This document shows, piece by piece, positions 1,890 through 52,968 of a DNA stretch of 64,000 nucleotides. Numbering within the stretch: the stretch's first letter is position 1; every line of letters begins with the position of its first letter. The notes beneath the pieces are model-generated. The model was given only the letters and a program-made list of their open reading frames with translations. It made no database searches and was not told where the DNA came from. Source of the stretch: Cyanidioschyzon merolae (taxonomy: Eukaryota); the NCBI GenBank assembly GCA_000091205.1, contig AP006488.2; one strand, 5' to 3'. The position numbers and the translations under genes are program-made.

Positions 1890-3200
1890 GTTAGATATAT
1901 ATTCTTTACTGAACAGTGCAAGGTGGACTGCATTCCTCGTTCAGGTACGGTTCACCACAGTATTCAGATGGACGAGGAACACTGAAATAAAGAAGCAAGT
2001 ACATGCGATCCGCACCGAAACCAGATATACTCATAGCGTGCTTGCGTTCACTGGTAGAAAAACGACCCGTTGATTACTTTAGGGAAGGGGAAAGCGACGA
2101 TGATACCCATCACCTCTATCTGTTTTTCTCGCCAGCTAATTCGTGTGATCCTGAATGCACTGGCATACAGTCGCGATAAAGTCCTGGTTCATGCACAGCC
2201 GTCTTGTATCGAATTCGCAACGACAGCGTTCCCGGAACGTCCCGATCGGCACGAGGCACAGAGACGTAGCTCTGTCTTTTTCAGACGATGCGACTTTCTT
2301 TGGCCGAAATGGTCGGGGCGTACATGGGTAGTCGCGGGGATGGAGCCAGCTGTATGTATGATCGAACTTGATGAGAGCGAGGACATCATCAACTGTTTGA
2401 GCTGCAGTGGATTCATTTGGCGGCCGCAGTTTCGCTCAGAGGGAAGGCTCGTAGAACAGCACACACTGTACCGAATCATGGAAGAAATTTCCCCTGACGT
2501 CTGACGACGTCGTCCGGTTGTACGGCTTGGTATTTCACCATTCCCCTTGCGTTCGAATGTTTGCTGATTCGATCGGGGAATAGAGCTGCTTTTCATTCCT
2601 CGATATAATCCGTGGTTGAGCCCCGTAGAAAGTGTTTTCTCTATTGTGAGACGTTTTTAATGCTCAACGGGGCGAGTCGCTGAAGCGTTCAGCACACATT
2701 GGTACCTGGCCACATTGCGTCCCTCGTCTGCAAGCCCTTTTTGCTCCGCTTAGCTCCTCATCTAACGGCATAAAGAAGCGCGCCATTTGAAGAAATAAGA
2801 AATCCAAGGGATGAGCTGCGGTGTACACTTCAGAACATCGAGATAGAGAGAAGGCAGCGGAGCGCTTCGCGCGATAGAAAAGTACGGAGAGCTGGCAGAG
2901 CAGCCAATGGTACTGAGTACTCGTGTTCTGGCAATCCTTGCATGGATGAGTTCAACAAGCGGCAATATATGCGAGGAGTTCGTGAAACGAGACTCCAACG
3001 TCACCTTCAGTATCTGACGATATGTAGTGCTGAAGAAGAGAACCGAGGAGCTGACGCGATACAGGTTTATGGGGCAGTCTCTCAGACTTGAAGTGCACAA
3101 GGAGAATCTGAGAACACGATACGAGTCTGCCGATCAAACAAGACTTGGAGGCGTCCTCGGATGGGTATTCATGCACCCCACATGATCGAGGAACTTTTTC
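1890..3200 (+). pseudogene. Degenerate Fanzor/TnpB-like element, copy A, a homolog of the copy at 50.5-51.7 kb. The RuvC-III motif has decayed to KRDSNVTF.
   Basis: Clear DNA and protein homology to the copy at 50530-51700. Both share the block '...FLWPKWSGRTWV...' / '...LFRTKWSGREWV...'. Both share a ~70-bp conserved DNA block (tttcccttgcgttcga...ggggaatagagctgc.tttcattcc at 2540-2610 vs 51160-51230). Both share the RuvC-III codons (agcggcaat.tatgc...ttc.tgaa.cg.gact..aac), here reading SGNICEEFVKRDSNVTF. Broken by stops and frameshifts. Confidence 0.45.
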
Positions 3201-8293: not shown

Positions 8294-10675
8294 TCAAAAC
8301 GCGAACGAACTATACACGGTCTGAACGAATACGGTATTTGTAAACAGACCATGTGGTGCCAGGGCTTGCAGCACCTCCTGGACATCGACGGTGCTCAACA
8401 TCTGGGCAGCAGTTGCTCCAGCAGCAGCAAAGGCAGCGCTTCTGTTCAGGTTCGCCGCAGAGCGCGCAACACCTATCGTGAAAAACAGGTCGTACTTGGC
8501 CGGTGGTGCACTGTCTGGAGAGGCACGGTACAACGAGCACTCGCTTCGACCTGGCACAAGCGACAGCTGTGCCGTTCCGAACCTGGAAGTGTTCAGCGCC
8601 TTGCTGATAGAAAATTCTAAAACCACCAGAGTTGCACTCTGAAGCAGCGATTGGAAGGATGTATGAGCGCAGAATGCTGTCTGGTTCACCACGGTTCCGG
8701 GAGCGGCCTCGACTCGCCAGTGCACATCATACGCACCGGCATACGACAACGCTGTCTGCAGCGGGAGCGGTGGCGGCATGACCGGTGCCAGCTCGCCGGT
8801 GCGGTCGTAAAGACGGACCACAACGACCGGGTCCAGCGAGAGACTCGTGCCGAGCGCTACCTGCATCGAAACAGCAATCAGAACACCGGTGGTATTGGCA
8901 CTGTCAAGGAGTGTGGCACGCACGCTCCCCAGAGCGGACATGTCGAGGCCCAGGATCGCTGCGCTCAGGAGGTAGCGTTCCGTGGTCTCGTTGAGGTGGC
9001 AGTGCATCGGTGCTACGGCACTGTTGCTGTAGTTATAGGCCTGCAAAACGTTCTGGAGCGCACTCGCGAGCGCCTTTCGAACCTTGCCGCAGGATGGTAA
9101 CAAAGCGTTCGGAAGTCCTGATGTCGAAGGCAACGGTTCGGGTACCAACGGCACGTAGACGTTCTTCCCTTTTTCGAGGCTCGAAGCACCTGCTTCCTGG
9201 TTTCCGGACACCGCTCCTCTCGATGGGGCACTACTTGGCACCAAGTGCATCCACGCAGGTACGTCTGCATCCGGCACGTTCAGGAGCGACGTCGAGAACG
9301 CATCCATACGGCCAATGGAGATGCGTTCCGTGGGTGATCCCAGGTGAGCACGCTCCTGGTCGACGGCTGGTGTGTCCAGTGAAGCGACGCGCCCGGCATT
9401 TACCCCCGGAGCGTCGTCCTGAAACGCTGCAATCGCCTCCGTCACGATGACCGCATTGCTACTGCAGGCCGTTGTGCAGTAACTTGGAAGCGGCGACGGA
9501 AGCGTGTCGTTGCTCATCAGCAGCTCGAGCACCGCGAGTGTATTCGCGCCTATCTCATAGTTCTGTTCACCGGGGACGGCATAGGGTGTAACCAGGGAAC
9601 TGCAGCGCTGGGTCTGGAATCCCGCCGCGACGCAGTCCCACAGCCAGGTCGTCGGCGAAAACTGGTACGTGTTTGTCCCCGCACTGTACGGATTGGGGCT
9701 GAAGAGCATGAACGGATTTCCAGCCCGGTCCCGAATAAGGACATTGTTCAGGGTTGTCAGCGCCTGATAGAGACCGCCGCCGCCGAACGGTCGGCACGAT
9801 TCAATCAAACTGCAGCCTGCAGCATCGGTGAGCAATGAATCAAAGCGTCCAGGAATGGAAAATGCCGGGTACCCGTAGTGTGTGTCGTACGAAAGGCCGT
9901 AGTGCGCGGTTTTGGTCTGAGGGTTCGCGGTGATCGTCCCGCTGAACCCGAGTCCTGCCGCAATCTGCCGCATCACCGTCGTTGCCAAGTCGATTGCGTG
10001 CGGCTCCGACAGCGGATCAATGGTGGTGTACGGATCAAAGTGCCATGGCGCTGCGCTGTTCAAGTCGATCTGCATATCGAAGGGCGTTCCTGCGACGACC
10101 TGCGGGCCCGCGATCGCTCCTGCCAAGGCAGTGTTATACCAAGTCCGGTTCAGGAGGCCGTTGGTGCCATTCCCAAACACCAAGTAGGCGAACGTTGAGC
10201 CCAGATCGCTATTCGTTGCAGATGATACCGCCGCCAGCGCGGCATAGCGGGTGACGACTCGAACAGGAGCGCTGGAACGAAACACGTTTGCCCACTGTAG
10301 TGCCGCGAACGCGAACGCCTCCTTTGCCCGCACGTCGTAAGGCTCCACAAAAGTAATATTAAAAGTAGACTGCGAGCCGTGCACGAGCACCGAAGGCGAA
10401 CCCGGTACGACGCGAAGCGTGTTCGATGTCGAAGATGTCGCTGGGAAGCTGGTCAGCAGCTTCCCAGCCGCGACAGCAGACACACTGCCCAGTACGAGGA
10501 GTGCCACGAGCCACCAGCGTGCCCACGCGAGTACGGTGTTCCGTGGACCGCGCCACGAGTGTTTTCGCCGTACCCAACGGGATTGAGGAAGAGAGCGTCC
10601 AGTTGTACATTGTTCTACTTGGCACTTTGTAGCTAGTCTCTGCATCAATACCGCTACGTTCCAGAGTGAACACAA
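8294..10675 (-). CDS. Hypothetical ~780-aa signal-anchored/secreted protein. The ORF opens at TTG; the first ATG is ~10645.
   Basis: Long ORF with an N-terminal hydrophobic anchor (WWLVALLVLGSVSAVAAG) after a basic stretch. Ser/Thr/Ala-rich with many N-x-S/T sites. The 'HAIDLATTVMRQIAAGLGF' segment vaguely recalls a metzincin helix but lacks HExxH. Confidence 0.45.
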   Translation of the reverse strand: MCSLWNVAVLMQRLATKCQVEQCTTGRSLPQSRWVRRKHSWRGPRNTVLAWARWWLVALLVLGSVSAVAAGKLLTSFPATSSTSNTLRVVPGSPSVLVHGSQSTFNITFVEPYDVRAKEAFAFAALQWANVFRSSAPVRVVTRYAALAAVSSATNSDLGSTFAYLVFGNGTNGLLNRTWYNTALAGAIAGPQVVAGTPFDMQIDLNSAAPWHFDPYTTIDPLSEPHAIDLATTVMRQIAAGLGFSGTITANPQTKTAHYGLSYDTHYGYPAFSIPGRFDSLLTDAAGCSLIESCRPFGGGGLYQALTTLNNVLIRDRAGNPFMLFSPNPYSAGTNTYQFSPTTWLWDCVAAGFQTQRCSSLVTPYAVPGEQNYEIGANTLAVLELLMSNDTLPSPLPSYCTTACSSNAVIVTEAIAAFQDDAPGVNAGRVASLDTPAVDQERAHLGSPTERISIGRMDAFSTSLLNVPDADVPAWMHLVPSSAPSRGAVSGNQEAGASSLEKGKNVYVPLVPEPLPSTSGLPNALLPSCGKVRKALASALQNVLQAYNYSNSAVAPMHCHLNETTERYLLSAAILGLDMSALGSVRATLLDSANTTGVLIAVSMQVALGTSLSLDPVVVVRLYDRTGELAPVMPPPLPLQTALSYAGAYDVHWRVEAAPGTVVNQTAFCAHTSFQSLLQSATLVVLEFSISKALNTSRFGTAQLSLVPGRSECSLYRASPDSAPPAKYDLFFTIGVARSAANLNRSAAFAAAGATAAQMLSTVDVQEVLQALAPHGLFTNTVFVQTVYSSFAF

Positions 10676-20108: not shown

Positions 20109-22674
20109 ACTTGATTTTTCAACCGCTCTTACGGAGCGTACGATACGAAGTGACGGTGCTCGATAGCCTGCAGCACACGAGCGACGTTAACGTTCGAGAG
20201 CGCAGCGGCTTCATCGCCGCCGTCGTCGACGCCGTCGTCAACGTCGTCGCCAGTTTGCGCTGCTGCATCCGGCGTGTTCGCTCCATAAGATTATCGTCCA
20301 GCGCCCGTGTCATTCGACGGTGGAGCGCTCGGGGCGGGCTGGTGGCGGCTCGCCCTTGAGCAGGTACAGAAATGGGTAAAAAGTTATCTGCTTGTCCCTG
20401 GCGATCTCCTTGCAGGAATCTCTTTTGTACTACCATGTACGTAAATATACAGTTTAGTTCAGTGCCGGTCCGTGGCGACGCGCATGCAGCGCCTGGGGCG
20501 GCACCCGCGCGCGCCTATCGAAGCGCGGGGCACCATTGATTGTTCAGCAGGTGCCCGACTCAAGTCCTTCCTGCTATCTTCATGCGGAGCTAGTGCATTT
20601 CTAGTTCGCTGTAACGCAGCGTATTCGTGCGTGGATTCGGGCGAGAATTTGAATAACGCTCTCCTGGCCACTTATTTTTTATTCGATACCTGGAGCGTTT
20701 CAGCAGAGTGCCCACACTGCATGCGGTGCAGTACCCTCGAAGGTTCGCTCGATACGAAGCCGCTGGATGCTCCAGAAACACAACACTTTTTCCGGATGCT
20801 GGGCGAGACCTTCAATTCTTGGTGCGCAAAGTGCTTGCGCGATTATGGCTCGTAGACTCATGCCATGGTAAGTCGCTTACTGTTCAATGCCTTGCCATCT
20901 GAGGTCCGGTCAGCTTCGCGTGAGGAATCTTTTGCATGCGGCGCTGTTTGGCGGTCTTCTTCTTTACCATTTTGAATCGTGGGACTGTGCTCGTGATTCG
21001 TATATGTCGTCCTGAACGCGTCAATGAGCATCGTACAGAATCAAGTCCTGCACTTGTTGTACGCTTTCGTCGAAGGACCAGGAGCGCAGGGGCCTTTGCT
21101 TGCTCGTCACCGCATCCATCGCGAGCACGCCTACGGGCCGATGCGCGTCTTCCCGTTTCGTCCTGTGCACGATCATAGAAGCAGCGCGGGCGTCCAAGGT
21201 CGGTGAAGGTAGAGAGCGACCTGTCCGAGTATGGTATCAAGAGGCGGACGAATCATCTATAGATCGATGAATGTGAAAATGGCGTTTCGTGTCCATAAAG
21301 ATTTATAGGACTGTGTTGAACAAGCGCTAATAGGCTGGCATGAAGAGCAGCTGAACGCCAATCTAAGCTGCATACTCCTCGACCGATTGGAGTGATGGAA
21401 ACCGACATTGCCCGAGACCCGGACAGGAGAATGTTCGCAAGATAAACATGAAACGCTCTTCGACGAAGGATGACGTGTTCGTCGATGTCATCCGTATGAT
21501 GATTTGGAGGCGAACAGACGATTGCATCGAGGCTAGGGTTCATGTTGTCGTCATGGGAGCATGACCCTTCTTTACGAACAGCGGTTTGAACCCCCATCCC
21601 TGCTTACCCATATACTGGTCTAAAGATTCTCCCTAATAACGTCTCATCGAATGGATCAAACACCCTTCGCTTCTGTAAAAAGCGTTCGCGTTTCGGTACC
21701 TACTCGATCATGTCTACTCCAACGCGCGCAAGCGTCCCAATGAAGCGTACGTTTCCCCTTGTCTGTGCGGGTCCGTCCGTGCCCGTTCGTATCCAAGGCA
21801 CGGAAACTTGACATCCTCTGGCTTTTTTGGTGATATTTTTTGCAGAACGTTTGGAGTGGAATGTATTGACAAGGAGACGATCGTGTTGGTATGGCAGAAT
21901 ATGTTCTGTTTTGAGTACACGACGTTCAGAATGAGAACGATGAGAAGGGTGCTTTATCAAACCCGCTAACCGAAGAATGGCGAACGTCTACAATAATGGC
22001 CGTCTTCCGCAGGCAACGAGTGACACGACCAAGTCTCTTCGCGACGTTTCTCCGATCTTCTGGAACCATTCATATAGTTGAATACTCCCAGAAACACGAA
22101 TGAACATGGGAAGTGGCGTGCCGGTACAGGTGTACCAACATGCACTGTTCTGAATGTCAAGCTTCTCGACCACTGACACCTCCGATGCATACGTTCTGAT
22201 AGGGCATCGGTGGCCGTCAGTGTTCGTCGCCCATATTCTCGAAATCCACTGCCAAGCACCAGAACAACAACATCGCCAACAGGACGTTTCTCGATACCAA
22301 GTATTGTCAAGCGTGCATCCATGGACCGCGTAACGCGTGCAGGCCGCTCCTGAGACGACTCACAGTTCGTACAAGCGCACTCCTGACGCCATCGGAGGTA
22401 CTCAAGGAGACGACCTCGTCACAAGTTAAACTTATAGGACCCGAAAATCTGCGTCAGGGTGTATGACGCTCCGCTGGAACCCGAAGAAGCGTTCTTAAGG
22501 AACGCGCAACGCAAGCCACTCCCGGAAGTCATGCGAGCACTTGACAGACCCAGACTAGGCGGCACGTCGCGCCACCAGCGGTATCGCAACATGAATGCCC
22601 AAGCAGCGTGCGTCAACTTATCCCTGAACAACCAGCCAAAAACGACATTCGGTTGCCTCGGCTTGCAAACATCT

Positions 22675-25611
22675 TTACGCCGACCCGGACTTGTCCTCGA
22701 GGTCGCCTTGGAGCTCAACCATCACCTGAGACTTGCTGCGGCTTTTTCCTCGCTGTGCTTCCCACTCCTCTTGTCGACGACAGAATTCAAGCTGTTGCTC
22801 GCGAGCAAGTTTTTCCAGCTCCTCGATCTCGCGCTGTTCGACTTCGCGACGTTGCCGTACGGCGTCGGCCTGACGAGCGGCAGCAGCCTCCCGCTGCTGC
22901 TGGCGTTGCTGCAGCTCTTCGTGACGGCGCCGGGTGCGCTCCTGCGCTTCAGCCAGCAGCCTACGTGCATATGCCAAGCGATGTAGGCACCAGCTGCTAT
23001 TGGCGTGCGCAGCCTCCGCGGTAACCACTTTGTTTGTCGGACCAGCAAGCGATGGTTGCCATTGTCGAACGACATCGGTAGACACGGAACGTTGCATCTG
23101 ACGGAGGCTCATTTCCATGGCTCGGAAACAACCGCCAGCGCATTCCAGGAGAACCGTAGCTACCTCCGGGTCCGTACCGTGATCAGGACGGCTGAGTCGA
23201 ATGGAAGACTCTTGAGCAAGGGTCAATGACAAGTCGAACCATACCGACAAAGCGGAAGGTTGCAGGTGCAGAGCGCGCTGCAGGGTCTCCATGCAAGCCG
23301 CATACTGGCCAAGGCCGTAGTGTGCAGCTGCGAGTGCCATCAAGGCCCCAGCATCGTACGGGGCGCTTTGAAGACGATCATCAAGAAGACGTATGGCGTT
23401 TCGGAGCGAGGCCACGACAGCGGAACCACGCGACAAGTGCACAGCTATGAGATTCGCCCGAGCACATTCCATGATTTTGGGTTCCGCCGAAGCAACTGCA
23501 CCTAACTGGGCCACCGCACAGAGGGCCTCCTCGGCTTCACTCAAGAGATTCATTTCACGGAAGTAGACTCCGAGAAGTTGCATCGCAGCGACATTATCAT
23601 GCGCGCGCTCTAGAACACCCAATAGCAGGTTTCCCGCAGCTACGAGAAACTTGTGACGGCGGCTCTGATGATGGCGAGCAGTCGCTCGTGCCAAGGTTAC
23701 ATAATACGCAGCAGTGACGAGATCGCAGTAATTTCGAGCTTGGTATCGCGTTTCCAAGTCCTTGCGTAGTTTCTTTCGACGGATAAAGTACTCGAACCAT
23801 GCTTGTGCCTCGTCAACACGGCCACGAGACTGTGCCAAAAAAGCCAAAGCCGTCACAGCTCGCGGATTCGGGAGCACTTGACGATACAGGTCCTCGGCAG
23901 TGTTCAAGTTCCGGTGAAGGTGCTCGGCTAAGACGCCTAGACGCAGCGTGGCATCCTCGTACTCAGGAAATTGTTCATGGATCGTGCGGTAGATGCTCTC
24001 GGAGCGCGTTAGATCGCCCAGTGACTCAAGCAGCCGCCCGAGGTTGTAGCTCAGGGTCAGGTGCCACGGACGCTTGCGGATGAACGCCACCTCAGGGAGC
24101 CAGGTTCGCAACGACAGCCCCTGATCGCCGGTAACCAACTGAAGCGCCCGCTCCAAAGCAATATATGCCTCGTTATACTGACCGAGGCGTACTCTCAAGG
24201 CAGCAATGTTGTTCCAGACAATCGGATCATCCCAGTGTTTCCCCAAGCGCGAGTAAAGCTGCAGCGCGAATGCCGGATCCAGTCGATCCATCAGTTCCGC
24301 GTACACAGCGAGCGCCTCTGCCGGTAGCTGCTCCAAATCCGTGCCCTGCAGTAACTCGAGTGCATGCTGCTGCGCCTGCTCGAGTGCCTTGCGTGACGCC
24401 TGCTCATCCGCTGCTTTCTCCTGGAGAATAACAGCAGAAAGCGCCCGGAGATAGGCATCCAGCCGAGCGGGGAGCGCACGCGACCCCTGTTGGCGAACCC
24501 GCTCTATTTGATCCATTGCTTGATCGAGCGCGTTTCTCCGCAACAGCGAATACGCAAGTGCCAAGCGGGCAACTGCCATCTCAGTCCAATGCTGGATACT
24601 GGTACCGTAGTGCGTTTCAGCCTCAATCCAGTCGCCGCGTCGTTCTCGCCAGCGACCGAGCAGGTATTCGGTACGTGCTGCGGCCCTGTGTGTGGCGGCT
24701 TTCCAGGTGTCCGGTTCAACTGCTCCCAGGAATCGAAACGCACGCTCTCGATGCTCGTGTACGATCGCATTACGGATTCGAAGCTCTTGGGGATAGAGCA
24801 CGAACGCCTCGCGAAGCAGCTCCTCAGCGACAGCACGTGCAGCTGCGGTATCCTTTGCCTCCGACGATGGACCGTGCGTCGGGGCCTCGAGAGCTCGCAA
24901 GCACACCCAGAGGCCCAGTAACGTATCTGGATGTGGATATGCGTCGTCTGCATCCGAATAGTGCATAACGCTCCGATCGATCCGCTCGCACTCCATCGAA
25001 AGACGCCAGCTGAGCACGCGTGTAGCGTCGAGCAACTTGCCGGCGGCAGCGAGCGCGTATGCGTATGAACACCACCATTCCGCTGGTGATGCCTCACCGT
25101 ACATCCAGAGCGCATCCGCATACCAGGCTGCAGCCTGCTGGGCTAGGTGCGGCTCGATGACGCTCCGTTCGAGGAGCACCCGCCCGAGGCCAACTCGAGT
25201 CAAGAGCAGAACAACAGGGCTTGTCTGCGGTTGGACTGCACGAGCGCTCGCTTCGAAGAGTTTCTGTGCCCCCAGGGTGTCCTCCTGAGCGAGGTGAACG
25301 AAGCCTTGCCAGACTGGTGCTAACTGCGCAGCTGCACGGTCGGTTTGAGCGAGTAACGAGGGCTCGAGCTCGACCTGCTCGGCTGCCAGCGTCACACCGA
25401 GTGCAGCCTCCAGCACTGCCGCAGCTTGAGGCCATGTTGAGCGTGCGGACTGCACAAGACGCACGGCTTCGTCCCACTGACGCTCTGCACAGGTGTTCAG
25501 GAACCTGGAACGCCACTGGCTCCAGTTCGTCAACTGCTGTTCGGGCACGGCGACCTCGACGGTGCTGCTGCGTGCCTCGACGCCCGCACGAGGTGCGTTC
25601 ATTAAAGCCAA
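22675..25611 (-). CDS. Large TPR-repeat protein with a C-terminal charged coiled coil, possibly Ctr9/Paf1-complex-like. The ORF opens at TTG; the first ATG is ~25602.
   Basis: A 978-aa ORF with many 34-aa TPR-like units (e.g. WNNIAALRVRLGQYNEAYIALERALQL, ALMALAAAHYGLGQYAACMETLQRALHL). The C-terminus is an R/E/Q-rich heptad region. The Ctr9 assignment is a guess from architecture only. Confidence 0.7.
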   Translation of the reverse strand: MALMNAPRAGVEARSSTVEVAVPEQQLTNWSQWRSRFLNTCAERQWDEAVRLVQSARSTWPQAAAVLEAALGVTLAAEQVELEPSLLAQTDRAAAQLAPVWQGFVHLAQEDTLGAQKLFEASARAVQPQTSPVVLLLTRVGLGRVLLERSVIEPHLAQQAAAWYADALWMYGEASPAEWWCSYAYALAAAGKLLDATRVLSWRLSMECERIDRSVMHYSDADDAYPHPDTLLGLWVCLRALEAPTHGPSSEAKDTAAARAVAEELLREAFVLYPQELRIRNAIVHEHRERAFRFLGAVEPDTWKAATHRAAARTEYLLGRWRERRGDWIEAETHYGTSIQHWTEMAVARLALAYSLLRRNALDQAMDQIERVRQQGSRALPARLDAYLRALSAVILQEKAADEQASRKALEQAQQHALELLQGTDLEQLPAEALAVYAELMDRLDPAFALQLYSRLGKHWDDPIVWNNIAALRVRLGQYNEAYIALERALQLVTGDQGLSLRTWLPEVAFIRKRPWHLTLSYNLGRLLESLGDLTRSESIYRTIHEQFPEYEDATLRLGVLAEHLHRNLNTAEDLYRQVLPNPRAVTALAFLAQSRGRVDEAQAWFEYFIRRKKLRKDLETRYQARNYCDLVTAAYYVTLARATARHHQSRRHKFLVAAGNLLLGVLERAHDNVAAMQLLGVYFREMNLLSEAEEALCAVAQLGAVASAEPKIMECARANLIAVHLSRGSAVVASLRNAIRLLDDRLQSAPYDAGALMALAAAHYGLGQYAACMETLQRALHLQPSALSVWFDLSLTLAQESSIRLSRPDHGTDPEVATVLLECAGGCFRAMEMSLRQMQRSVSTDVVRQWQPSLAGPTNKVVTAEAAHANSSWCLHRLAYARRLLAEAQERTRRRHEELQQRQQQREAAAARQADAVRQRREVEQREIEELEKLAREQQLEFCRRQEEWEAQRGKSRSKSQVMVELQGDLEDKSGSA

Positions 25612-25873
25612 AGACTAGACAAGACTTAAAGAACCTCCTGCAAAGAGCGGAATCACAGACTCGAGAACCGGAACAGAGTACCAAACAGCTGTGAAGGAAC
25701 AACCCAGGAGTGTCCACGGAAACGCCTTTATAAGGACGTGGAGCACACACCACCACCGCCGTTCTAAGTCGAACGACGTCGGGCGTGTACAGTAGTGGCG
25801 AGAAACCCGCCTTGGACAAGAAATCTTCCACTGCGGTGTAGACGCCTTCCAGCCCTTTGAGAACGGCCACCCA

Positions 25874-26314
25874 CTACTGCTTCCAAATTTCTATCATATA
25901 GTTAAACATGAAGAGGTGTCCAATGAAGTTCTCTCTTGTCGACTCTGGAGGTCTTTTCTCCAGCACCGCACATCTCCTTATATTGATTGCGGCATTAAAG
26001 TCTCGGTTCACAAACTCCATACGTTTCTTGCAATTGATTGTACTTCCTAATGCAAGTAGCCCTCGAACTTTCGCCCTCCTTTCCATTTGCTCGTCTGTCA
26101 GCGGTCCGTACTTTGCGATTTCCTCAGGGCTCCGTTGGCACTTTTCCATCTCGACCCTATGAAGTATACAGTCCAGTCCATGGTGTATATACGATGTTCG
26201 AAACTCATCTACAGGTATTGTAACAAAACGCCTTGCCCACTCCTTGTACGTTCTTGTCGTTGGAGCTGGCGTAGTCCATTTTTTGGGTCTTCTAGCGCCC
26301 TGCTCCGTACGCTT
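25874..26314 (-). CDS. Fanzor-like nuclease, C-terminal segment. It carries a TS motif, a Cys/His cluster and the RuvC-III catalytic motif.
   Basis: The open frame reads ...TIPVDEFRTSYIHHGLDCILHRVEMEKCQRSPEEIAKYGPLTDEQMERRAKVRGLLALGSTINCKKRMEFVNRDFNAAINIRRC.... The '(N/D)RDxNAAxNI' element is the hallmark RuvC-III of TnpB/Fanzor/Cas12. The frame is offset from the middle segment by a ~90-100-nt putative intron (gtttgc...tag). Confidence 0.6.
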   Translation of the reverse strand, partial: KRTEQGARRPKKWTTPAPTTRTYKEWARRFVTIPVDEFRTSYIHHGLDCILHRVEMEKCQRSPEEIAKYGPLTDEQMERRAKVRGLLALGSTINCKKRMEFVNRDFNAAINIRRCAVLEKRPPESTRENFIGHLFMFNYMIEIWKQ

Positions 26315-26401
26315 CTACTAGCCTCTGATTTTCATCCTCCTTCAGGGCACTCAACTGATTGAAAAAATTCGCGAACGCCCGCTGCTTCCCACAATACAAA
26401 T

Positions 26402-27187
26402 TCATTCGCAAACGAGCCCACGGGGGTTGGTATACTTCTCCCACAGCGCATCCCAATGCGCCATGCGAACTTTCATGAACTCCCGAAAAGCTTCAAAGTC
26501 CGCCCCTCGGCTCGTCACCTCGCTCAAAGCTTCCAGGTGATCCTTCGTTCCTGAATTCCATGTAACGATTTTCTTCCTCGCATTCATGGTGCCCGATTCC
26601 CGATTGTATCTCGCTCTCGAGAACCTCAAAAGACGCATGTCTTTCTGACGTAAGTTACCATCAGTCCCATCTTCCGCACACTTTGGTACAGAGATGGTTA
26701 TGATATTTGTATTCCCAGGGTCCGCGGCAACGACAAAGTCGTTATCTTCCACTTTCTGGGTCGCAGGATCCGCCTCCTTCTTTTCTTCATCCTTCGCCGC
26801 GTCAAAGACAAAGTCGTTATCCTGCACTTTCTGGGTCGCAGGACCAGCCTCCTCCTCATCTTCATTCTTCGCCGCGTCAAACATAAAGTCGTTATCCTCC
26901 ACCTCCTGCGTCGCAGGACCAGCCTCCTCTTTGTTTTCTTCATGCATCGCCGTGCCAACGACAAGGTCGTTATCTCGCACCTCCTGCGTCGCAGGACCCG
27001 CCTTCTTCTCATCTTCATGGTTCGCCGAAGGCGGAACTGGCCGATCTTTCTTCAACCGCCGATAGTGTATACATAAGGCCACTCCATCGGTTTCGATCAC
27101 CCCCGTGAATACCTTTTGTTTGCTCACGTTGAGACGTTTGAAATCGAAGATACTCCTCCAGTACGTCTCCCGTTTTTCACCGGAGAA
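26402..27187 (-). CDS. Fanzor-like nuclease, middle segment. It carries a 24-aa x4 acidic tandem repeat and then a RuvC-I-like motif.
   Basis: '...[21 protein letters not shown]...' resembles the D-P-G RuvC-I motif of Fanzor (I/V-D-P-G). It is preceded by four copies of 'EEAGPATQ(E/K)V(E/Q)DNDF(M/V)FDAAK(N/D)E(D/E)'. Confidence 0.55.
26715..27010. repeat. In-frame 72-bp (24-codon) tandem repeat x4 inside the Fanzor-like coding region.
   Basis: The DNA unit '...aaagtcgttatcctgcactttctgggtcgcaggaccagcctcctcctcatcttcattcttcgccgcgtcaaagaca...' repeats 4 times. Antisense ORFs 26694-27065 (+) and 26698-27018 (-) are by-products. Confidence 0.8.
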
Positions 27188-27437
27188 TTACTCCCTGCTG
27201 ACATCGAACTCGGGACTGATCTCCCTCATGATGCCATGAAGGACTGCGGAGTCGGTAGTCACAAAATGTGACTTGATCTTGCACACTGGAACCACGTCGA
27301 AGCGCTTACCCATTCGGAAAGCCTTCCGTCTCTCCTACTCTTCATTTGTCTCTTCACTCAGCTTCATCTCTGCCTTGCGTTCGAACTCTCGCTCCAAAAA
27401 CACAAAATAGCGCACGATGAGGCGATAGTATCTTTCC

Positions 27438-28334
27438 TTACCTTTTTTTCAACACTGATATCTTTTCTGTTGGATTCGCCAGCCCCAGTACCGCACGGTG
27501 CTCTTGTATAACCGCGCGGATGACGGAGTCCTCATTTGTGCTCCTGCGTGACGTCTTCTTGTCGACGAATTCGACCTCACCTTCATGCTTGCGATCTTTC
27601 GTGATGCCATTGATAATCGCAAATTTTCCATTGCGAGACAGACCCGGGTAGAGTGCAAACACGGCGCGTATCATGAAACGTTCGAGGTTCGTTGTCAAAC
27701 GGTTCTTCAGGTTCGTAATGTACTTCATTGCCCCGTATGTGTAAATATCCTGGTCACCCTTGTATCGAGTACCATTGAAGCTGTAAAAGGGATGTTTTCC
27801 GTGGAGGGCATGCACCCGCTCATTTTCCATCCGCGCTTCCTTTGTACCAAGCATCAGCTGACGAATAAACTTCTTATCGAAAAACTCGTCTGGAATCTCG
27901 ACCGTTTCCATGTGCGTCACGTCGCGATACATCTCTCTCACCAAATGCATCAGTCCTGACGACGCCTTGACGATACTCTTGGAGTATGACGCAACACGTT
28001 TTTCGATAGCGTCTCGCAACTTTTCCCTGTAGGGATCCTTGATATGTCCAAGAAGAAAGGTTTTCACCACCATCTCGTTGTACAGCCGTCTTTCTTGCCG
28101 CCTTCGACGTAGGGCCTCTCCCTTTAGGTCCTTCTTCGCTTCCTTGTCTTCTGGACTCGGCACAGTTTTCGTTTTTTTCTGGTAGTCGGCGACCCTCGGC
28201 CTCCAGGATCGTCGACTTGCTTTTTCATAACTTTCCTTTTTTAGTTTTTTTTTGAAAAAGAAAGCTCCTGGAACGCTTCTGTTATATACTGCGAAAAAAC
28301 AATTGAATACACATGTTTGAGGTTTGAGACTCAA
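27438..28334 (-). CDS. Fanzor-like nuclease, N-terminal segment (298 aa). It ends at an AG|GTAAGG splice donor.
   Basis: Uninterrupted basic/charged N-terminal region. The ORF's TAA stop lies inside 'aaaaaaaGGTAAGG' (+strand ccttacc at 27436-27442), a consensus 5' splice donor. Confidence 0.55.
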   Translation of the reverse strand: MSLKPQTCVFNCFFAVYNRSVPGAFFFKKKLKKESYEKASRRSWRPRVADYQKKTKTVPSPEDKEAKKDLKGEALRRRRQERRLYNEMVVKTFLLGHIKDPYREKLRDAIEKRVASYSKSIVKASSGLMHLVREMYRDVTHMETVEIPDEFFDKKFIRQLMLGTKEARMENERVHALHGKHPFYSFNGTRYKGDQDIYTYGAMKYITNLKNRLTTNLERFMIRAVFALYPGLSRNGKFAIINGITKDRKHEGEVEFVDKKTSRRSTNEDSVIRAVIQEHRAVLGLANPTEKISVLKKR

Positions 28335-28711
28335 ATGAACTGAAAACTATACTTGGCTATGAAGTTAACGAAAATACAACTTTTACATTAGAGCTACATG
28401 CTAGATATCAAGATCACGTTTTCCTTCGACGGCGGCATTTTTTTCATAAACAAAACGTTTCCTTTGGCCAGCGTTCTCCGACTATGCGCGTTTCTCTTTT
28501 CTTACTTTTTTGTGTTTTCCAATGTGCGGTGAAGTATCCATCAAACAGCCTACTTCCAAGTTCCATTACCTATACTTCTTCTAGGATATTCTGGTCGTTT
28601 CATACGTCCTATCGGGTGTGCCTCGTACCTGCCTTTCTGTATTCGCCTTTGCACCTTAAATGCTGGAGCAGATACCTCATAGAGACAGAACGGCGTTGCC
28701 GTACCACAGAG

Positions 28712-28830
28712 GGCGTCGGCTCAAGGCGTGGTTCACCCGACGTAGAATCGGGTGTCGTTGTCTGTTTGTGCTCGGACAGTCTGCGGATGCAGGCCTGTCT
28801 TCGCTGTACGACACGCTGGAGACACTTGGC
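28712..28830. repeat. Dispersed repeat, copy 1 of a pair with 33806-33925. About 75% identical and in the same orientation.
   Basis: 'gtgctcggacagtctgcggatgcaggcctgtcttcgctgtacgacacg' aligns to 'gtgctcgcccagtctgcgtatgcagacctgccttcgcggcacgacggg' and the flanking ~60 bp. Both copies translate on the minus strand to similar peptides (RRQACIRRLSEH.../RRQVCIRRLGEH...). Confidence 0.6.
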
Positions 28831-30451
28831 TGTTAGGATAAATCGAGGGAGTCGCCTCCCTCCTTTGTGATCATGCATGGAATGCGTTGTCGTCGGTTGG
28901 CAATGCGGATTTGTGCTTGACACCCACCACAGTGGGTAGGCGCAGAAAGCGCACTGGCCCCGTGTTCGCATCCGATCCGCTGGACCTTCCGCCCAGAAGG
29001 TAGCATGTGAGTTTGTTCGCCATTAATGAGCGCTGAGGCTCCGTTAGCGGACCATCAGTTGCCAGTGCTGCACTCAAAGTGAGTGTCCGGCCTTCGCCTA
29101 TCACGGCGATGTCCAGCTGCTGCTGTCCTTCAAGGAGCTCGCTGCGCTCCTGTTTCCAGTGCGGGCACTATAAGCCTAAATATGTCAGCGTCTCGGGGGT
29201 CTGGTCTCCAGAGCAGGGACAGTGTGATTCCCAGTGCGATTCCGGTGTTTCCGTACGGCTTAGAGACGGTGCTAGTCAGAAACCACCAACGCGGATTTCG
29301 GCGATCCACTGGGTACCTCGAGCAAGTCCCGGGAATTCCAGCACCCACTACCAGTACTTGCATGTGTATGCTAGGGTGTAGTTCCGGATAGGGTCAAGCC
29401 GGCGTTACTTGCGCGACTGGTTCCATGTCTACATTCCCGTACTGTTGTTTGGACCGTTCGCTTCAGGCGACGGGAGAATTCTATATTTCTGGGGAACGAT
29501 TGGGTAGCGTGTTTTCGCGTAAGAGGCGCTTCAGCCAAATCTGCGCTGATTTCATCCAAGTGTTCTAGCGGTGCGTTGGGGTCTGCATGAAAATCCGACT
29601 GAACCAGGTGTACATGGTGGGCCCTTTGGCCCACACACGTGCCTGGCAGCCTGCTGCTATCGCTTCTATTGAGGGTATTTGGAGTTCAAGTCCGAGTGCC
29701 AGGCAGGTTGGTTGCTCTGCTCTGCATTGAGCATCCAACAGCAACAACGAGTCGCATTGCCCTGTTGGCGGCTATCTGCAGACGTGAGATATTTGTGTGG
29801 TTCATGCCGCACCATTCAGCACCCCAGGTCGCAGGCTGGATGATACACATCCTTAGCGCCCTGGTACGAATTGCTAAGGGGATAGAGGGGTCGGATGGGA
29901 ATGGGCGTGCGATCGCTGTACGTCTATGCATCTTGGCGATCATCTCGTCGATGTGTGCCTTTTCGTCGAGCGTCGGCGTGAGACAGACCCTGCAGATAGC
30001 GATATTTTTCCACGATTGGAATTTCCTGATTCTGCAACCGCCACGAGCGATTGCGAATGCTCTGCGAGTCTCCATGGATGAGCATGACGCCGCACTTCGA
30101 TGCTCCTACGTTCATCTTCCAGCGATCGACCCAGGTGCTGACTTGTTCCATGCTAGCCGCAAGCGTTTCCGGGGCGGATGCCAACAGCACGACATCGTCC
30201 GCAAGTAGAAGGCCTGCGAGGCGGTTCGTATGTGAGGGCTCCTCATCGGGCATCTCCACAGTCTATCCACGGCACCTCAAGCCCGTATTGTCTGCAGTTG
30301 TTCAGCAGATCGTTGATGAAGATGTTGAAAAGGAGCGGGGATGCGGGGTCGCTCTGTCGCAGTCCACGGCGGATTCTTATACGAGGGATTCATGAGCCGT
30401 CGCCCAGTCGGATGCGCATCCATGAGTCTGCATAGAGCGCCCGGAAGAATG

Positions 30452-31480
30452 CTAAGCACTTTTCGGAGACTCCGGCGCGTTCCATCTTGAGAAATAGAGC
30501 CTCATGCGGGACCGTGTCAAAGGCCTTTTGAAAGTCGATGAAGCATACATGAGGATCGGTGCGACCTCAACACTCCTACATACATCAGGGATGTATGCTT
30601 CTTCGAACATGCGTTGGATGAGCTCCAGAAGGCGTTTGCCCAGGATTCTGTCAGATTCATCTGGTATCGATGGTGTCCCTGTTGTCTCGTCTTTTGGGGT
30701 CGCCAGTTTCATCCACTCCGTCGCGATACCGTCGATGCCAGGTGTTTTGCGGTTGCTTGAGCATAGCAGGGTCCGAACAGATTCAGGCCAGAAGATTGGG
30801 TCGTTCCATACCGGTACCGGTTCGAGGCGCGGTAGTTCTGCAGCATATTGGTGCCGATAGATTCGGTTTTGGCAGTGCCCAGTTGCGTCTTCATGCAGCT
30901 CTGTCCCGTGGTCTGTGCAGGCCTCATTCACTGAGGCACTCTCCGTCCTCAGCGCTTCCTCATAAACGATTGGTGTGAGCCCCAGGCACTTTTTTGGTGG
31001 GTCAAGTCTCGATCGGATGTAGCGCCAGGTCTCATCTTCGTTGGTGCTCTCTAGCATAGATTTCGCCAGGGCGGCGATTTTGCGGCTTCGATCCTCTCGT
31101 TTGTCTTCTCTGGAAAGTTTCTTCTCTCTTTTGATAGCTTCCTCATGTTGTGCCTGTAGCGCCGGTAGCGCTGCCTTCGCTTCCATGTCTCCGGCGTTGG
31201 CGCGTATGGCGGTGCGGTTGACGATCTTATAGAGTCGGCGGTATTCATCAATCCGAGTTTTGGTACGTCGTTTCAGGAACTGAGGTTTGCAACTGTTGTG
31301 TTCTGGTCCAAGCAGTCCCAGCTCTCTGGCGGTCTTCTGATTCCCAGCTACAAACTCGCGTGCCAATTGGTCTAAAGATTTGCATGCACGGCTTTTCGGA
31401 TCTACAGCGCTGTGAGTAGGTGACTGGGTTTGGCGACGGCTTTCTTGAGTTCCTGCTCGGGTGCTCTTTCGGGGGATCAC
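30452..31480 (-). CDS. LINE ORF2 reverse-transcriptase N-terminal fragment.
   Basis: KTPGIDGI (RT domain 1) and ...RLLELIQRMFEEAYIPDVCRS... The RT continues in the shifted ORFs 29924-30259 and 29686-30075. Confidence 0.6.
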   Translation of the reverse strand: MIPRKSTRAGTQESRRQTQSPTHSAVDPKSRACKSLDQLAREFVAGNQKTARELGLLGPEHNSCKPQFLKRRTKTRIDEYRRLYKIVNRTAIRANAGDMEAKAALPALQAQHEEAIKREKKLSREDKREDRSRKIAALAKSMLESTNEDETWRYIRSRLDPPKKCLGLTPIVYEEALRTESASVNEACTDHGTELHEDATGHCQNRIYRHQYAAELPRLEPVPVWNDPIFWPESVRTLLCSSNRKTPGIDGIATEWMKLATPKDETTGTPSIPDESDRILGKRLLELIQRMFEEAYIPDVCRSVEVAPILMYASSTFKRPLTRSRMRLYFSRWNAPESPKSA

Positions 31481-31511
31481 TCATGATGGGCTCGTTTGGG
31501 AGTTCTTCTTT

Positions 31512-32441
31512 CTATTCTTCTGTTTTTTTCTTGCTGGTCTTTTTCTTCTTCGGGCTCTTTCCTGAGCTGCATTCTCTGCTTATTTTGCATCTAGGTGGAT
31601 CATGAGGTTTCTGTGCCTCCTTCTCCGTATCCCGTTGGGTCTCTTTCGCTATTGTAGATCCCTCTATTGTTGTCTCTTCTTCGTTAATGTACTGATAATT
31701 CGTTATCTTTTCTCGGAAGGCTGCAAGTGACTTGTTGGTTAGCATCCGGGCTTGGTATGTTGAGGGTGCACTTGCTGGTAACCCTTGCTGTGCGCTCTGA
31801 GTCGTGTCGGCTGCTGGTTCAGCATTTTGGTTCCTCGGGCGCGGGTACCATCTGCAATGGATGGGCCAGTGATCTGAGGCATCCCAAATTCGGTCAACGG
31901 CGGTTTGTAGGAGTGCCGGGTCGCATCGGTCGCTTAAGATGTGGTCTATCGATGAGCGAAGCAAACGTTGGTCGGTAATGCGGTGCCACGTCAGGGGTGA
32001 ACCTCTACACGGATTCACCGACAGGAATCCGCATCTCATTCGTTGTAGGTGTTGCCTAAGGTGGCCCGCCGACATGTTAAAATCTCCCATAATTATCATC
32101 GGTTCCTGATTCCGTGTGCGGCGTTTCAATCGCTGGATGTTGGAGGCCAACTCTTTGAGTGCCTGTTGGCGCATCTCTCCGGCGTGTGGTATATAAATGG
32201 AGCCCACAAGCCAAGGTGCAGGCTGACCTGGAATTGTAACACTCACAAAGACCATCCATGGAGACGGGTTGCCGACCGCATAGCAAGTGAGGCGTCGATC
32301 GACAGTGAGCGCCACACCACGTGTGCGTAACGAAGTTGGCTTCTCCGTAGGGTCTACGTATGTTGGTTCAAAGGTGTTGTCGCCTGGGGTATGCAGACGA
32401 TAATACGTCTTTGTGTTCTCTGAGTGTAGTGTCTCCTGCAA
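31512..32441 (-). CDS. LINE ORF2 endonuclease (APE/EEP) domain fragment.
   Basis: GDFNM, IDHIL and SDHWP motifs are typical of L1/RTE-type AP-endonuclease domains. Confidence 0.65.
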   Translation of the reverse strand: MQETLHSENTKTYYRLHTPGDNTFEPTYVDPTEKPTSLRTRGVALTVDRRLTCYAVGNPSPWMVFVSVTIPGQPAPWLVGSIYIPHAGEMRQQALKELASNIQRLKRRTRNQEPMIIMGDFNMSAGHLRQHLQRMRCGFLSVNPCRGSPLTWHRITDQRLLRSSIDHILSDRCDPALLQTAVDRIWDASDHWPIHCRWYPRPRNQNAEPAADTTQSAQQGLPASAPSTYQARMLTNKSLAAFREKITNYQYINEEETTIEGSTIAKETQRDTEKEAQKPHDPPRCKISRECSSGKSPKKKKTSKKKTEE

Positions 32442-50062: not shown

Positions 50063-50529
50063 AGAGCGACTTTCAGTGGCTGTTTTCCGGTGGACCTGCT
50101 TTGACAGGTTGAGAAAGGTGCAGCGGCTGTCTCAGATCGCTTCGCCGAGAACACCGAGCGCCGTCGCAAGCAAGCCCAAAGGCCGGCGTGCAACGGCCTC
50201 GAAACGCCTCCGCTACAAAGCTCGTTTTGTTCCAGTGCACACTGGACGCGTCGAATTCCACTGATCTGAGGGCGCGATCACCGCCACAGTCGATGTGGCA
50301 AGCGTCCTTGGCTAGACCGCGGTCGCGCCTGCGTTCCTGCAGAGAAGCACCCCAGAATGGGGATGATGTGCGCAGGTGTTTGCGCGCGCACTTTTGCCGC
50401 GCGCGATTTCGATTTTATCGCCTTCAACGCTTATCTGCTTCACTCTGCTGCGGTGTAGAGCCGGAGATCGACGTCACGGTAGAATGTACCCTATAGACCG
50501 TAGACGGACTGCTTGTGGGATATATATTG

Positions 50530-51700
50530 TTTAATGGTCAGTACAAGAAGGACTGCATTCTCTCTTCAGCATGGTCACACCACAGTACTCAGATGGGTAC
50601 GGAAGACTGCGGGAAAAAGAGTATGCGCTTGGCCCCATAAACCGATATTATGAAAGACTGGCTGCGGTCAATGGTCGAAATCGACCCGTTAATGACCTTA
50701 CGGAATGCAAAACGAGGTGGTGGCCGACATGTACGTTTCTGTTTCTCAACAGATTGTTCATGTTGTCTTGAAAACATATGAATACAATCGCGAAAGGAGC
50801 GTCAGATTTCACCCGAGGTCATCTACCGACATCGAAACGACAGCGTTCCTGGAACAAAGGGATCAATATGGAGCACAGGGACGTCGATTTGTTTTTCTCA
50901 GACGATGGGACTTGTTTCGGACGAAATGGTCAGGGCGCGAATGGGTACTCGCGGAGCAGGGAGCCCGTTGTATGTACAATCGAACTAGAAGGTAGCTAAG
51001 GCATCATCATCTGTTCTAGATACAGTTGGTTCACGTAGCGGCCGCAGTATCGTTCGTACAGGAGGCTCATCCAACAGCATCAACGACTTTGTCGAAGTAC
51101 TCGAACTTCTTTCCTTGACGTCCAGAAACGCACTGCTTTGGATGCCGTGGCATCTCATCGTTTCCCTTGCGTTCGAGCTTTTGCCGATTCTATCGGGGTA
51201 GAGCTGCGTTTCATTCCTTCGTACGCTTTGTGGTCCAATCGCATAAAAAGGAGTGTTGCCTGTCGTGAAACGTAGTGATCGCTCCACTGGACGAATCGCT
51301 GAAGCGTTCATCACACGGGGACATATTAAGGCACATTTCGTGTTCCTTGAGCCAGTCCTGCTCGCTCCGGGAACGTCCTCACCACAACCTATAAAAAACT
51401 GCGTTCGTTTTCAAAGAATTAAGGTAGAGCCACGATGCATAATTCAGAAGTTCGACATGGAGAGAAGGCAGCGGAACGCTTCGGCGATAGCAGAGGACGC
51501 AGAGCTGACACAGCACCAAATGGTTCAGAGGGCGCGAGTTCTACGACACTTTGCACTGGTGAGTACAAACAGCGGCAATAAATGCATGGACTTCATGAAC
51601 CGCGACTTTAACGCTGCTATCAAGAACAGACGATTTGATAAGATGAAGACGAGACCCGTGGAGCAGACGCGAGCCAACCTTGTAGGGCAGCCTCTCAGTC
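50530..51700 (+). pseudogene. Degenerate Fanzor/TnpB-like element, copy B. It retains RuvC-III 'NRDFNAAIKNRR' but the zinc-finger Cys have changed to Arg.
   Basis: '...PRCIIQKFDMERRQRNASAIAEDAELTQHQMVQRARVLRHFALVSTNSGNKCMDFMNRDFNAAIKNRRF' aligns residue by residue with copy C 'LDCILHRVEMEKCQRSPEEIAKYGPLTDEQMERRAKVRGLLALGSTINCKKRMEFVNRDFNAAINIRRC'. The upstream part is homologous to copy A at DNA level. Interrupted by stops. Confidence 0.5.
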
Positions 51701-52149
51701 TCGTAGTGTGCATGCAGATACTGAAACCGATAGCAGGCGGCCAGTCGACAAGCGCCCGGAGGAGGCGCCCGCGGATGGGCATCCATTTACCCTGCACGGT
51801 CGTGAACGTATTTTTGTTTCACTCAGGATTGCAAGGTGGAAGATCGAGGCATCGAACTGGAAATCCCGAACGTGTGACTGCTGCTGCTATACCCGGCCAC
51901 ATCGAGCGATGGAAACACCAGAATCGTTCACTGCTTGTCCGGCAGAATCGTTCGCAGTGTGTAAATTCGAGGATCTGCGTCTGTGCTGGACTGTTGAACC
52001 GTACCATACCAGTGCCATGATCCAGGCGAGTATCCAAATGGACTCCCTCACGGTTACTGAAGTTAACCTTATCGAAAATCTCCAGCGCTTCCGAGCAATG
52101 CCCCTACTGGGTACCAAACGAGTGCTTGGAAACGTTGTTCGATAAACAG

Positions 52150-52320
52150 ATGCTACAAGTTCCAGAAGCGCGAAATGCTTCCGGATGTTGATCGAGGCGT
52201 TCAGGGCGCGGTGTGCAAAGTGTGGCGCGCATCGGGTCCTGGTCGACTCGTACCGTGGCAAGTCTGTCACCTTCGATTGCTTTGCCGTTCGGCGTTCGGT
52301 CAGCTTGCCGTTCACCACCT
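52150..52320 (-). other. Second RuvC-III-like relic, copy E ('CAPHFAHRALNASINIRK'), on the opposite strand just 3' of copy B.
   Basis: The minus-strand translation at ~52178-52216 gives the NAxINIR(K/R) core; the catalytic Asp is replaced. Low-confidence remnant. Confidence 0.25.
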
Positions 52321-52968
52321 CGTGCGACAGTCTCTGGCTCAGCTGCTTCTTCTGTATCTAATTCAGGGTGCATCTGAGCTCGGTATGTGTGAATAAAGTA
52401 CAGGACGCGTGAAAGAAAACCGGTTTGAATCGATTCCTGCATCCGTGACTCATGATCACCATTCGTATCAACCGTACAGAAGCTTTCCATCTTGTGGCTA
52501 CTTTGATAGTCTTTTTTGGGAACGTATGGAGTAGTATGGATTGACGGAGAGTCAATCGCACAGAACGAGTTTTGCCACCTTCTGCTTTGGGTGCACGACA
52601 TTCAGAATACGGAGCACGAGAACTGCGCTTTATCTAATGATTGAACGCAGAGTGACTGGCGGGCAGAAATCAAGCCGGTTTGCGCAACCTAGCAGTGATA
52701 GCATGCAGACGTTCTGCTCGACATTCCTGCAATCTACAGCATACATTCCTTTTCTTGCATACCTGCAAGAAAAACAAACAGGGCGAGCTGATATAGGTAT
52801 TCCAGAATTCATTACCCTGAGTATCGCAACGGACCTAGAGGCGCGGGCACCCACTTCCGGGCCAAGCCATCTTTCGATGACGCCGCTCTGTGGTATGCGC
52901 AACATTCGCCGCAAACGAACATGAAATGCACACCGCTCCGTCGATATCGTACCCGAGGGCATGTACTC

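Follow-up and report, generated by a model that had tools for sequence, protein, structure and literature searches.

A single family of Fanzor1 transposable elements, CMe-1A, has been reported from the red alga Cyanidioschyzon merolae; it numbers about 150 copies with some 80% identity to their consensus, a sequence of about 3 kb that has no terminal inverted repeats (TIRs) and whose target site duplications (TSDs) were not determined (Bao & Jurka 2013, Mob DNA 4:12; PMC3627910). Some of those copies still encode an intact Fanzor1, a eukaryotic relative of TnpB, and the long-lasting coding capacity of the family was remarked upon (PMC3627910). This family, known in C. merolae since 2013, is the closest described system to the locus analyzed here, which lies in a 64,000-nucleotide (nt) stretch of chromosome 6 of C. 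merolae strain 10D (contig AP006488.2 of assembly GCA_000091205.1), referred to below as the window. A preliminary description of the window, made from the sequence letters, had reported a nearly intact, intron-containing Fanzor gene. We find that the minus-strand region from 28438 to 25743 is almost certainly one old, inactivated copy of CMe-1A, with a single continuous open reading frame (ORF) that has been broken by frameshifts and stop codons.

The Fanzor1 family and the identity of the locus

The locus resembles CMe-1A in being from the same genome and in belonging to a multicopy, old family with a single Fanzor1 ORF and with most copies decayed. The comparison used 71 related loci fetched from Cyanidioschyzon-bearing metagenomes. 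Copies are 85 to 91% identical to the consensus derived from those metagenomes, versus about 80% to the published consensus, and the element limits found here enclose about 2.75 kb, including a 57-nt 5' segment, versus about 3 kb; nothing else substantive differs. The shorter limits possibly arise because the tail of a long interspersed nuclear element (LINE) often lies directly upstream.

Homologs were found at E=0 with the stitched translation of the locus, the closest being P0001 (752 amino acids [aa]), which showed 78% identity across 98% of the stitched query. The frame-corrected translation found 45 homologs, every one of them metagenomic. A profile of 13 family proteins, run against all PDB sequences, gave a single match, to SpuFz1 (8GKH; E=2.3e-8), in which query positions 268 to 621 aligned to positions 653 to 1008 of the 8GKH chain. 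Within that span, the family blocks DPG, DEFRTS, and NRDxNAA aligned to IDPNKRD, DEYKTS, and NRDM of SpuFz1. The family is a large one, its profile reaching 4,080 clusters (50% identity) at E≤1e-3. When an AlphaFold2 model of P0001 was compared by Foldseek with the PDB, the first seven ranks were all Fanzor1 structures (SpuFz, PpFz, and GtFz; E of 2.4e-10 to 3.9e-7, probability 1.00), and Cas12 variants and Fanzor2 ranked far lower (E≥0.03). The comparison with SpuFz1 that the preliminary description had proposed, made here with P0001 in place of the stitched protein, thus placed the family among the Fanzor1 proteins.

The catalytic site has the arrangement expected of such proteins. At the canonical RuvC-II position the family reads VxAYG(A/S) (VEAYGAG in the window copy), without a glutamate, and an alternative glutamate is conserved about 35 residues downstream in the motif (D/C/S)E(F/Y)RT(S/T). 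A rearranged RuvC site with a relocated glutamate is a hallmark of Fanzor proteins (PMC10530073). The RuvC-I aspartate (ADPGNTN) and the RuvC-III aspartate (NRDFNAAINI) are conserved throughout the family alignment, and all three catalytic codons are present in the window copy, on the minus strand. The RuvC-I codon, GAC at 26720-26722 in ADPGNTN, aligns to IDPNKRD of SpuFz1; the relocated RuvC-II codon, GAG at 26204-26206 in VDEFRTS (26212→26192), aligns to DEYKTS; and the RuvC-III codon, GAC at 26000-26002 in NRDFNAAINI (26008→25979), is placed by family conservation and the SpuFz1 alignment, together with a weak Pfam TNB match. The peptides quoted in the preliminary description are accordingly present, the RuvC-I-like one at 26734→26705, and its statement that the aspartates of RuvC-I and of RuvC-III are retained was borne out (codons 26722-26720 and 26002-26000). 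The same holds for its central claim of a Fanzor/TnpB-like gene in a eukaryotic chromosome, which agrees with the profile match to SpuFz1, the structural ranking, and the rearranged RuvC site.

Compared with the structurally characterized proteins, the family is most like SpuFz1 (8GKH, 9CEU-9CEZ) in the WED/RuvC/TNB half matched by the profile and in the aspartate, relocated glutamate, and aspartate of the active site. It also shares with SpuFz1, GtFz, and PpFz a long, helical, REC-like N-terminal half and, possibly, a structured RNA-like region over the 3' end of the ORF. Identity to SpuFz1 is only about 14%, however, and the C. merolae family does not conserve the zinc-ribbon cysteines (CxxC…CxxC) that SpuFz1 has. 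The C. merolae family differs further from SpuFz1, GtFz, and PpFz in carrying variable acidic 25-aa repeats before the RuvC-I strand and in a gene without introns, and the window copy differs in being a pseudogene. With TnpB of IS200/IS605 elements (ISDra2) and with Cas12f, it shares the split RuvC fold, the NRDxNAAxN block, and the expectation of a guide RNA at the 3' end of the gene or element; in contrast to those bacterial proteins, it lacks the canonical RuvC-II glutamate, is about twice as long, and has no TnpA partner. Cas12- and TnpB-like structures scored E≥0.03, versus ≤4e-7 for Fanzor1.

Several observations weigh against this assignment. AlphaFold2 modeled P0001 with modest quality (mean predicted local distance difference test score of 57.9 and predicted template modeling score of 0.42), and the TM-scores of the model to Fanzor1 structures are 0.30 to 0.46, so that the fold evidence is a ranking and not a tight superposition. 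Pfam searches with the separate ORF pieces returned a sub-threshold match to Cas12f1-like_TNB (E=0.0064) and nothing else; of the Pfam result anticipated by the preliminary description, only this weak match was seen, and it was the 13-protein profile that found SpuFz1 instead. The precomputed Pfam family of the homologs is PF26935 (DUF8286), a domain of unknown function. Neither the C. merolae family nor its relatives at 35% identity have the canonical CxxC…CxxC zinc-ribbon cysteines; the catalytic aspartate, glutamate, and aspartate are kept in both. At that site the close family reads TSYTHHELGCTL…EKCQ…LVSTTSDGKK (window 26192-26010) and the distant branch TTIVHWKDDSLL…WCDSTNC, neither with the canonical four-cysteine pattern. 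The preliminary description had the position of the zinc finger right, after a TS dipeptide, but the usual cysteine cluster is missing there. The missing cysteines are a peculiarity of the whole family, not of the window copy, and they are probably the reason that the TNB and OrfB_Zn_ribbon models of Pfam barely detect the family and that it is filed as DUF8286 (PF26935). Finally, the name CMe-1A rests on the host, the copy number, the length, the lack of TIRs as given in the paper, and the single Fanzor family reported, a comparison with the published description of the family.

A continuous reading frame broken by old lesions

A majority consensus was built from 28 full-length copies, and the window copy is 90.3% identical to it. 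Leaving aside the tandem-repeat array, which could not be aligned reliably, the consensus is a single intron-less ORF running from MKKQVDDPGG… (start, MKKQVDDPGGPGSPAARKKQKTVPSPEEKEEKKNRKGEALRRRRQERR) to …HVSWRRFV* (end, LEAVVGGRSKKTGRRLHVSWRRFV*). Its N terminus is basic and resembles a nuclear localization signal, and the ancestral gene was about 750 to 800 codons long. In the window the ancestral Fanzor1 coding region, now a pseudogene, occupies 25812-28228 on the minus strand, as placed by the consensus and by profile tiling. The three minus-strand segments listed in the preliminary description (28334→27438, 27187→26402/5, and 26314→25874/7) are all present. The first had been taken as the N-terminal region, which is right for its coding part; the consensus ATG is at 28228-28226, and the stretch 28334→28229 is non-coding.

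The family profile (alignment A1, 652 positions) covers positions 4 to 642 through six ORF pieces on the minus strand, with no position skipped. Profile positions 4-223 lie at 28346→27441, 222-257 at 27448→27338, 259-306 at 27334→27191, 308-489 at 27187→26405, 487-529 at 26492→26295, and 530-642 at 26314→25877. The DNA of the window copy aligned end to end (28438→25740) with that of L001, the locus of P0001, at 84.5% identity, and the P0001 ORF crosses both of the proposed introns uninterrupted. Three-frame translation of the gaps between the three segments likewise reads as good protein, once the frame is changed or one stop is passed. Judged by this sequence comparison, the three segments are fragments of one ORF split by lesions and are not exons.

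Measured against the consensus, the window copy carries five frameshifts and four nonsense codons, has lost the ancestral stop codon, and lacks about 57 nt of the 5' end. All lesions are given here on the minus strand, from the 5' end of the gene. Frameshift 1, close to the N terminus, is a loss of 1 nt within or beside an A-run (28172-28179, at about 28176; 71% column support). Frameshift 2 (27438-27449) is a gain of 1 nt in the A-run 27449-27441 and creates a TAA at 27440-27438. Two nonsense codons follow, a TGG (Trp) changed to TAG at 27335-27337 and a GAG/GAC changed to TAA at 27188-27190. Frameshift 3, at 26427, is a loss of 1 nt at the start of the supposed second intron (93% support). 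The third nonsense codon, again TGG (Trp) to TAG, is at 26292-26294, and frameshift 4, a gain of 1 nt, is at 26278 (96% support). Frameshift 5, a loss of 1 nt at 25918 of a base that is kept in 28/28 other copies, yields a false C terminus, …IEIWKQ*, at 25874. In the ancestral frame, the fourth nonsense codon changes GAA to TAA at 25902-25904, and the ancestral stop at 25812-25814 is now CAA. With these lesions and a truncated 5' end, the copy is far from the nearly intact and perhaps active gene of the preliminary description: its ORF is unable to give a full protein, most of the lesions are common to orthologs that are up to 5.6% diverged, and as it now reads the copy is predicted to make no functional nuclease. 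Among the 71 related loci only L001 has a long ORF, and that ORF itself has an A-run frameshift in its N-terminal part and a premature TAA in its C-terminal part.

The age of the lesions could be read from environmental Cyanidioschyzon contigs (L073 to L078) that hold the same locus, with the LINE remnant, the Fanzor relic, and the same tetratricopeptide repeat (TPR) gene. Over 3.2 kb (window positions of about 25500 to 28700), these orthologous loci are 94.4 to 98.6% identical. Common to them all are three frameshifts (the losses at 26427 and 25918 and the gain at 26278), three nonsense codons (27337, 27190, and 25904), and the absence of the ancestral stop. Variation among them is confined to one stop and to the pair of frameshifts in A-runs: frameshift 1 is present in L073 and L076 and not in L077, which is free of both A-run frameshifts, and L073 keeps TGG where the window has TAG at 26294-26292. 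Because most lesions are common to the orthologs, the gene was already dead in their common ancestor, and the window copy represents an insertion that is old and fixed.

Mismatches between the window copy and the consensus fall 45/48/100 by codon position, a roughly twofold excess at the third position (p=3.5e-7), and for all copies against the consensus the figures are 1788/1465/2779. This excess suggests that selection was acting on the protein of the master copies while much of the divergence built up, which agrees with the remark of Bao and Jurka on long-lasting coding capacity, and it indicates that purifying selection on the Fanzor1 protein lasted long during the diversification of the family.

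Element boundaries, the 3' module, and neighboring sequences

The remnant of the CMe-1A type element occupies about 2.7 kb on the minus strand (25743-28438), limits that come from blastn and, for the 3' boundary, from the alignment of 38 to 50 copies. With blastn against the 71 metagenome loci, homology ended at 28438/28437 on one side and at 25757-25740 on the other. In other copies it begins about 57 nt beyond, that is 5' of, the equivalent of 28438 (…ATCGCGCTCGGTGAGCGCACCTGGGAGATC…), and this segment is missing from the window copy; the 5' limit is fuzzy and falls about 57 to 90 nt upstream of that equivalent. Within the element no second or TnpA-like ORF was found in the ORF list or in the consensus. 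Tandem Repeats Finder identified a minus-strand array of four 75-nt repeats (26722-27027) that encode acidic 25-aa units; the strand found just before the RuvC-I aspartate recurs at the end of each unit. Close homologs have between 1 and 6 repeats, the array is absent from the distant branch at 35% identity, and AlphaFold predicts it to be disordered (pLDDT of 22 to 25).

The 3' end of the element overlaps the end of the ORF and forms a conserved module (25743-25885, minus strand) that is a candidate ωRNA scaffold, on the basis of its conservation in 38 copies and its predicted fold. The last 140 nt or so are highly conserved across those 38 copies. A long-range stem is predicted between CAGUAGUGG (25879→25871) and CCACUACUG (25798→25790), followed by a terminal hairpin at 25780→25757, CGUCGUUCGA…UCGAACGGCG, and then by a GT-rich stretch to about 25743. 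The predicted fold is more stable than expected, with z = -2.6 for the window copy, -4.0 for L001, and -2.5 for the consensus. RNAalifold with default settings predicted no consensus structure for the 38 copies of the 3' end. With RIBOSUM scoring a structure was obtained in which 86.5% of cells pair, and its covariation was not above that of shuffled alignments (78/500). An Rfam scan of 25000-30500 gave no match. It is thermodynamic stability, then, from which an ωRNA structure would be deduced. In about 38 loci the flanking sequence just past this hairpin (window 25743-25756) is weakly similar and GT-rich, for example TTGATGGTG, TTTGGTG, and GTGGTGGTG; this GT-rich flank may still be part of the element, as its final bases, or may point to a preference for certain target sites.

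Characterized Fanzor1 proteins allow a likely function to be proposed for the ancestral element. It would have carried one gene without introns, about 750 to 800 codons long and encoding a Fanzor1. The product of this gene, judged by its homologs SpuFz1, GtFz1, and PpFz, would have bound an ωRNA made from the 3' end of the gene or element itself and, as an RNA-guided endonuclease dependent on a target-adjacent motif (TAM), would have cut guide-matching double-stranded DNA with its one RuvC site of aspartate, relocated glutamate, and aspartate. Cleavage presumably aided the persistence or spread of the element. In the window copy the gene has since been destroyed by the lesions, with a LINE-type tail now abutting the place of the lost 5' terminus.

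That tail belongs to a degenerate non-long-terminal-repeat (LINE-type) retrotransposon at 28439-32441 on the minus strand. It was recognized by an ORF for an apurinic/apyrimidinic endonuclease (APE)-type domain at 31512-32441 (Exo_endo_phos, E=7e-9) and by a weak reverse transcriptase match (RVT_1) at 29924-30259, and its presence accounts for the strongly negative AT skew at 28 to 32 kb. Its tail finishes in an A-run (28444-28438) that borders directly on the Fanzor element's truncated 5' end. The same LINE 3' tail also lies directly upstream of the Fanzor 5' terminus, there with the 57 nt present, in L013, L015/L016, L019, L022, and L030, which are at least five non-orthologous metagenomic loci. 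In L001 the LINE fragment is inverted (8401-9668), and solo LINE tail copies of about 325 bp occur in both orientations in many loci. The recurrent junction may reflect a target preference, co-amplification as a composite, or chance in repeat-rich regions, and it may be related to TE-N2_CMe of Bao and Jurka.

Other pieces of Fanzor origin are scattered through the window, which holds at least five Fanzor-derived relics. Repeats of about 1.3 kb at 1858-3178 and 50483-51792, both on the plus strand, are 68% identical to each other, and the last 350 bp or so of both match positions of about 2251 to 2597 of the Fanzor consensus (nhmmer E~1e-37); these ends translate to diverged RuvC C-terminal fragments with 32 to 47% aa identity. 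Shorter fragments lie on the minus strand at 20779-21104 and 52085-52441. Among the metagenomic loci, eight begin at the equivalent of window 27026, possibly as a 5'-truncated subfamily. Five of these eight (L043, L044, L056, L058, and L060) are one locus, 91 to 100% identical upstream, with a head-to-head palindromic rearrangement in which an inverted copy of consensus positions 1648-2224 joins the tandem repeats at their beginning.

The surroundings are those of a C. merolae chromosome. Four long ORFs of the window match annotated C. merolae 10D proteins exactly, among them tubulin cofactor D, a nucleolar RNA helicase, α-1,2-mannosidase, and CMF040C, and all four map to a single 536,163-bp record. 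Just downstream of the relic, on the same strand, is the TPR gene (BAM79422.1, 975 aa; 22675-25602, minus). The 3' end of the element is about 140 to 155 nt upstream of the ATG of this gene (25602), and the relic therefore occupies its presumptive promoter or 5' region. The relic itself appears to be unannotated at this locus, as the preliminary description had expected: no NCBI-sourced protein was present among sets of 45 and 152 homologs, and exact look-ups with ATG-started fragments of the relic gave no annotated protein.

Competing explanations and significance

The reading from which we started, three exons joined by two GT-AG introns into a nearly intact, eukaryote-adapted, and possibly active Fanzor, is now scarcely credible. 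It drew on the GTAAGG string that follows the end of the first piece, and many Fanzor genes elsewhere do have introns (PMC10530073). Both supposed introns, however, encode conserved protein that includes the most invariant columns of the family, the first specifying KERYYRLILRYFVFL…KRFNVVPxCNIKSHFVTID in homologs and the second LYGGKxRAFAxFFN, so that splicing would remove profile positions 222-306 and 487-529. Three additional coding pieces lie between the segments, and P0001, the consensus, and the profile are collinear across both gaps. The string read as a consensus spliceosomal donor, "AAG|GTAAGG" at about 27443-27435, is coding sequence for Lys-Gly/Asp-Lys-Glu thrown out of frame by one extra A in the A-run, which the window shares with two other orthologs. 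The consensus has TTG AAA AAA GAT AAG GAA (L-K-K-D-K-E) at this place and L077 has TTG AAA AAA GGT AAG GAA, so that GATAAGG and GGTAAGG are both read in frame. The GT…AG gap of about 90 nt before the third segment starts at the loss at 26427 and is likewise coding. Further lesions (the frameshifts at about 28176 and at 25918 and the nonsense codon at 25904-25902) fall outside the supposed introns, and the whole C. merolae genome has only 27 introns, with no candidate for U1 small nuclear RNA found (PMC4829280). Of the statement that this is an intron-containing eukaryotic Fanzor and not a bacterial IS605-type TnpB, the first part must be dropped with respect to introns and the second stands. 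A recent acquisition of a bacterial IS200/IS605-type TnpB, by horizontal transfer or as contamination, would account for the RuvC-III motif (N/D)RDxNAAxNI, which is also found in TnpB and Cas12, and for the Cas12f1-like_TNB match of Pfam. It has next to no probability, given that the sole sequence match in the PDB is the eukaryotic SpuFz1 and that Fanzor1 structures rank far above Cas12 and Fanzor2. The missing canonical glutamate, an ORF of about 750 to 800 codons whose product (about 750 aa) starts with a basic N terminus and has a long helical N-terminal half, and the lack of a second, TnpA-like ORF argue against it as well. Genuine C. merolae genes flank the locus on both sides, and orthologs of it occur in other populations.

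A third possibility accepts that the protein gene is dead and supposes that the ωRNA-like 3' module (25885→25743) is still transcribed and is loaded in trans by a Fanzor1 from one of the few intact CMe-1A copies elsewhere in the genome. Its guide would then come from the flank immediately 3' of the element, some 140 nt upstream of where the TPR gene starts (ATG at 25602). Repeats aside, no part of the element is better conserved than this module, its predicted fold is still family-like (z=-2.6), intact Fanzor1 proteins are still encoded by some CMe-1A copies (PMC3627910), and the third-position excess of mismatches (45/48/100) suggests that the protein was under selection during the diversification of the family. 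Against this, covariation support for the RNA structure was not found, the promoter region of the element itself is without its 5' terminus, and in the orthologs the 3' region gathers substitutions like the rest of the element. We regard such a role as improbable, and a decayed CMe-1A copy as the explanation that best fits the locus.

As a fixed, decayed member of a family catalogued in 2013 that encodes no nuclease, this copy itself matters little. It does illustrate that GT…AG bounds on collinear ORF fragments do not amount to evidence of introns, the less so where the whole genome has only 27 of them, and that comparison with homologs immediately reveals frameshifts and stops in their place. 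We consider it unlikely that the lineage as a whole is an unusual, moderately thermophilic Fanzor1, without a zinc ribbon, with acidic repeats, and long under selection, whose dead copies donate ωRNA in trans and whose LINE junction hints at mobility. C. merolae grows at about 42 to 45°C and at very low pH. For that reason an intact or consensus-rebuilt C. merolae Fanzor1 could be a candidate for a heat-tolerant Fanzor without the usual zinc finger, and it is at the level of the family that the finding would have its modest value.

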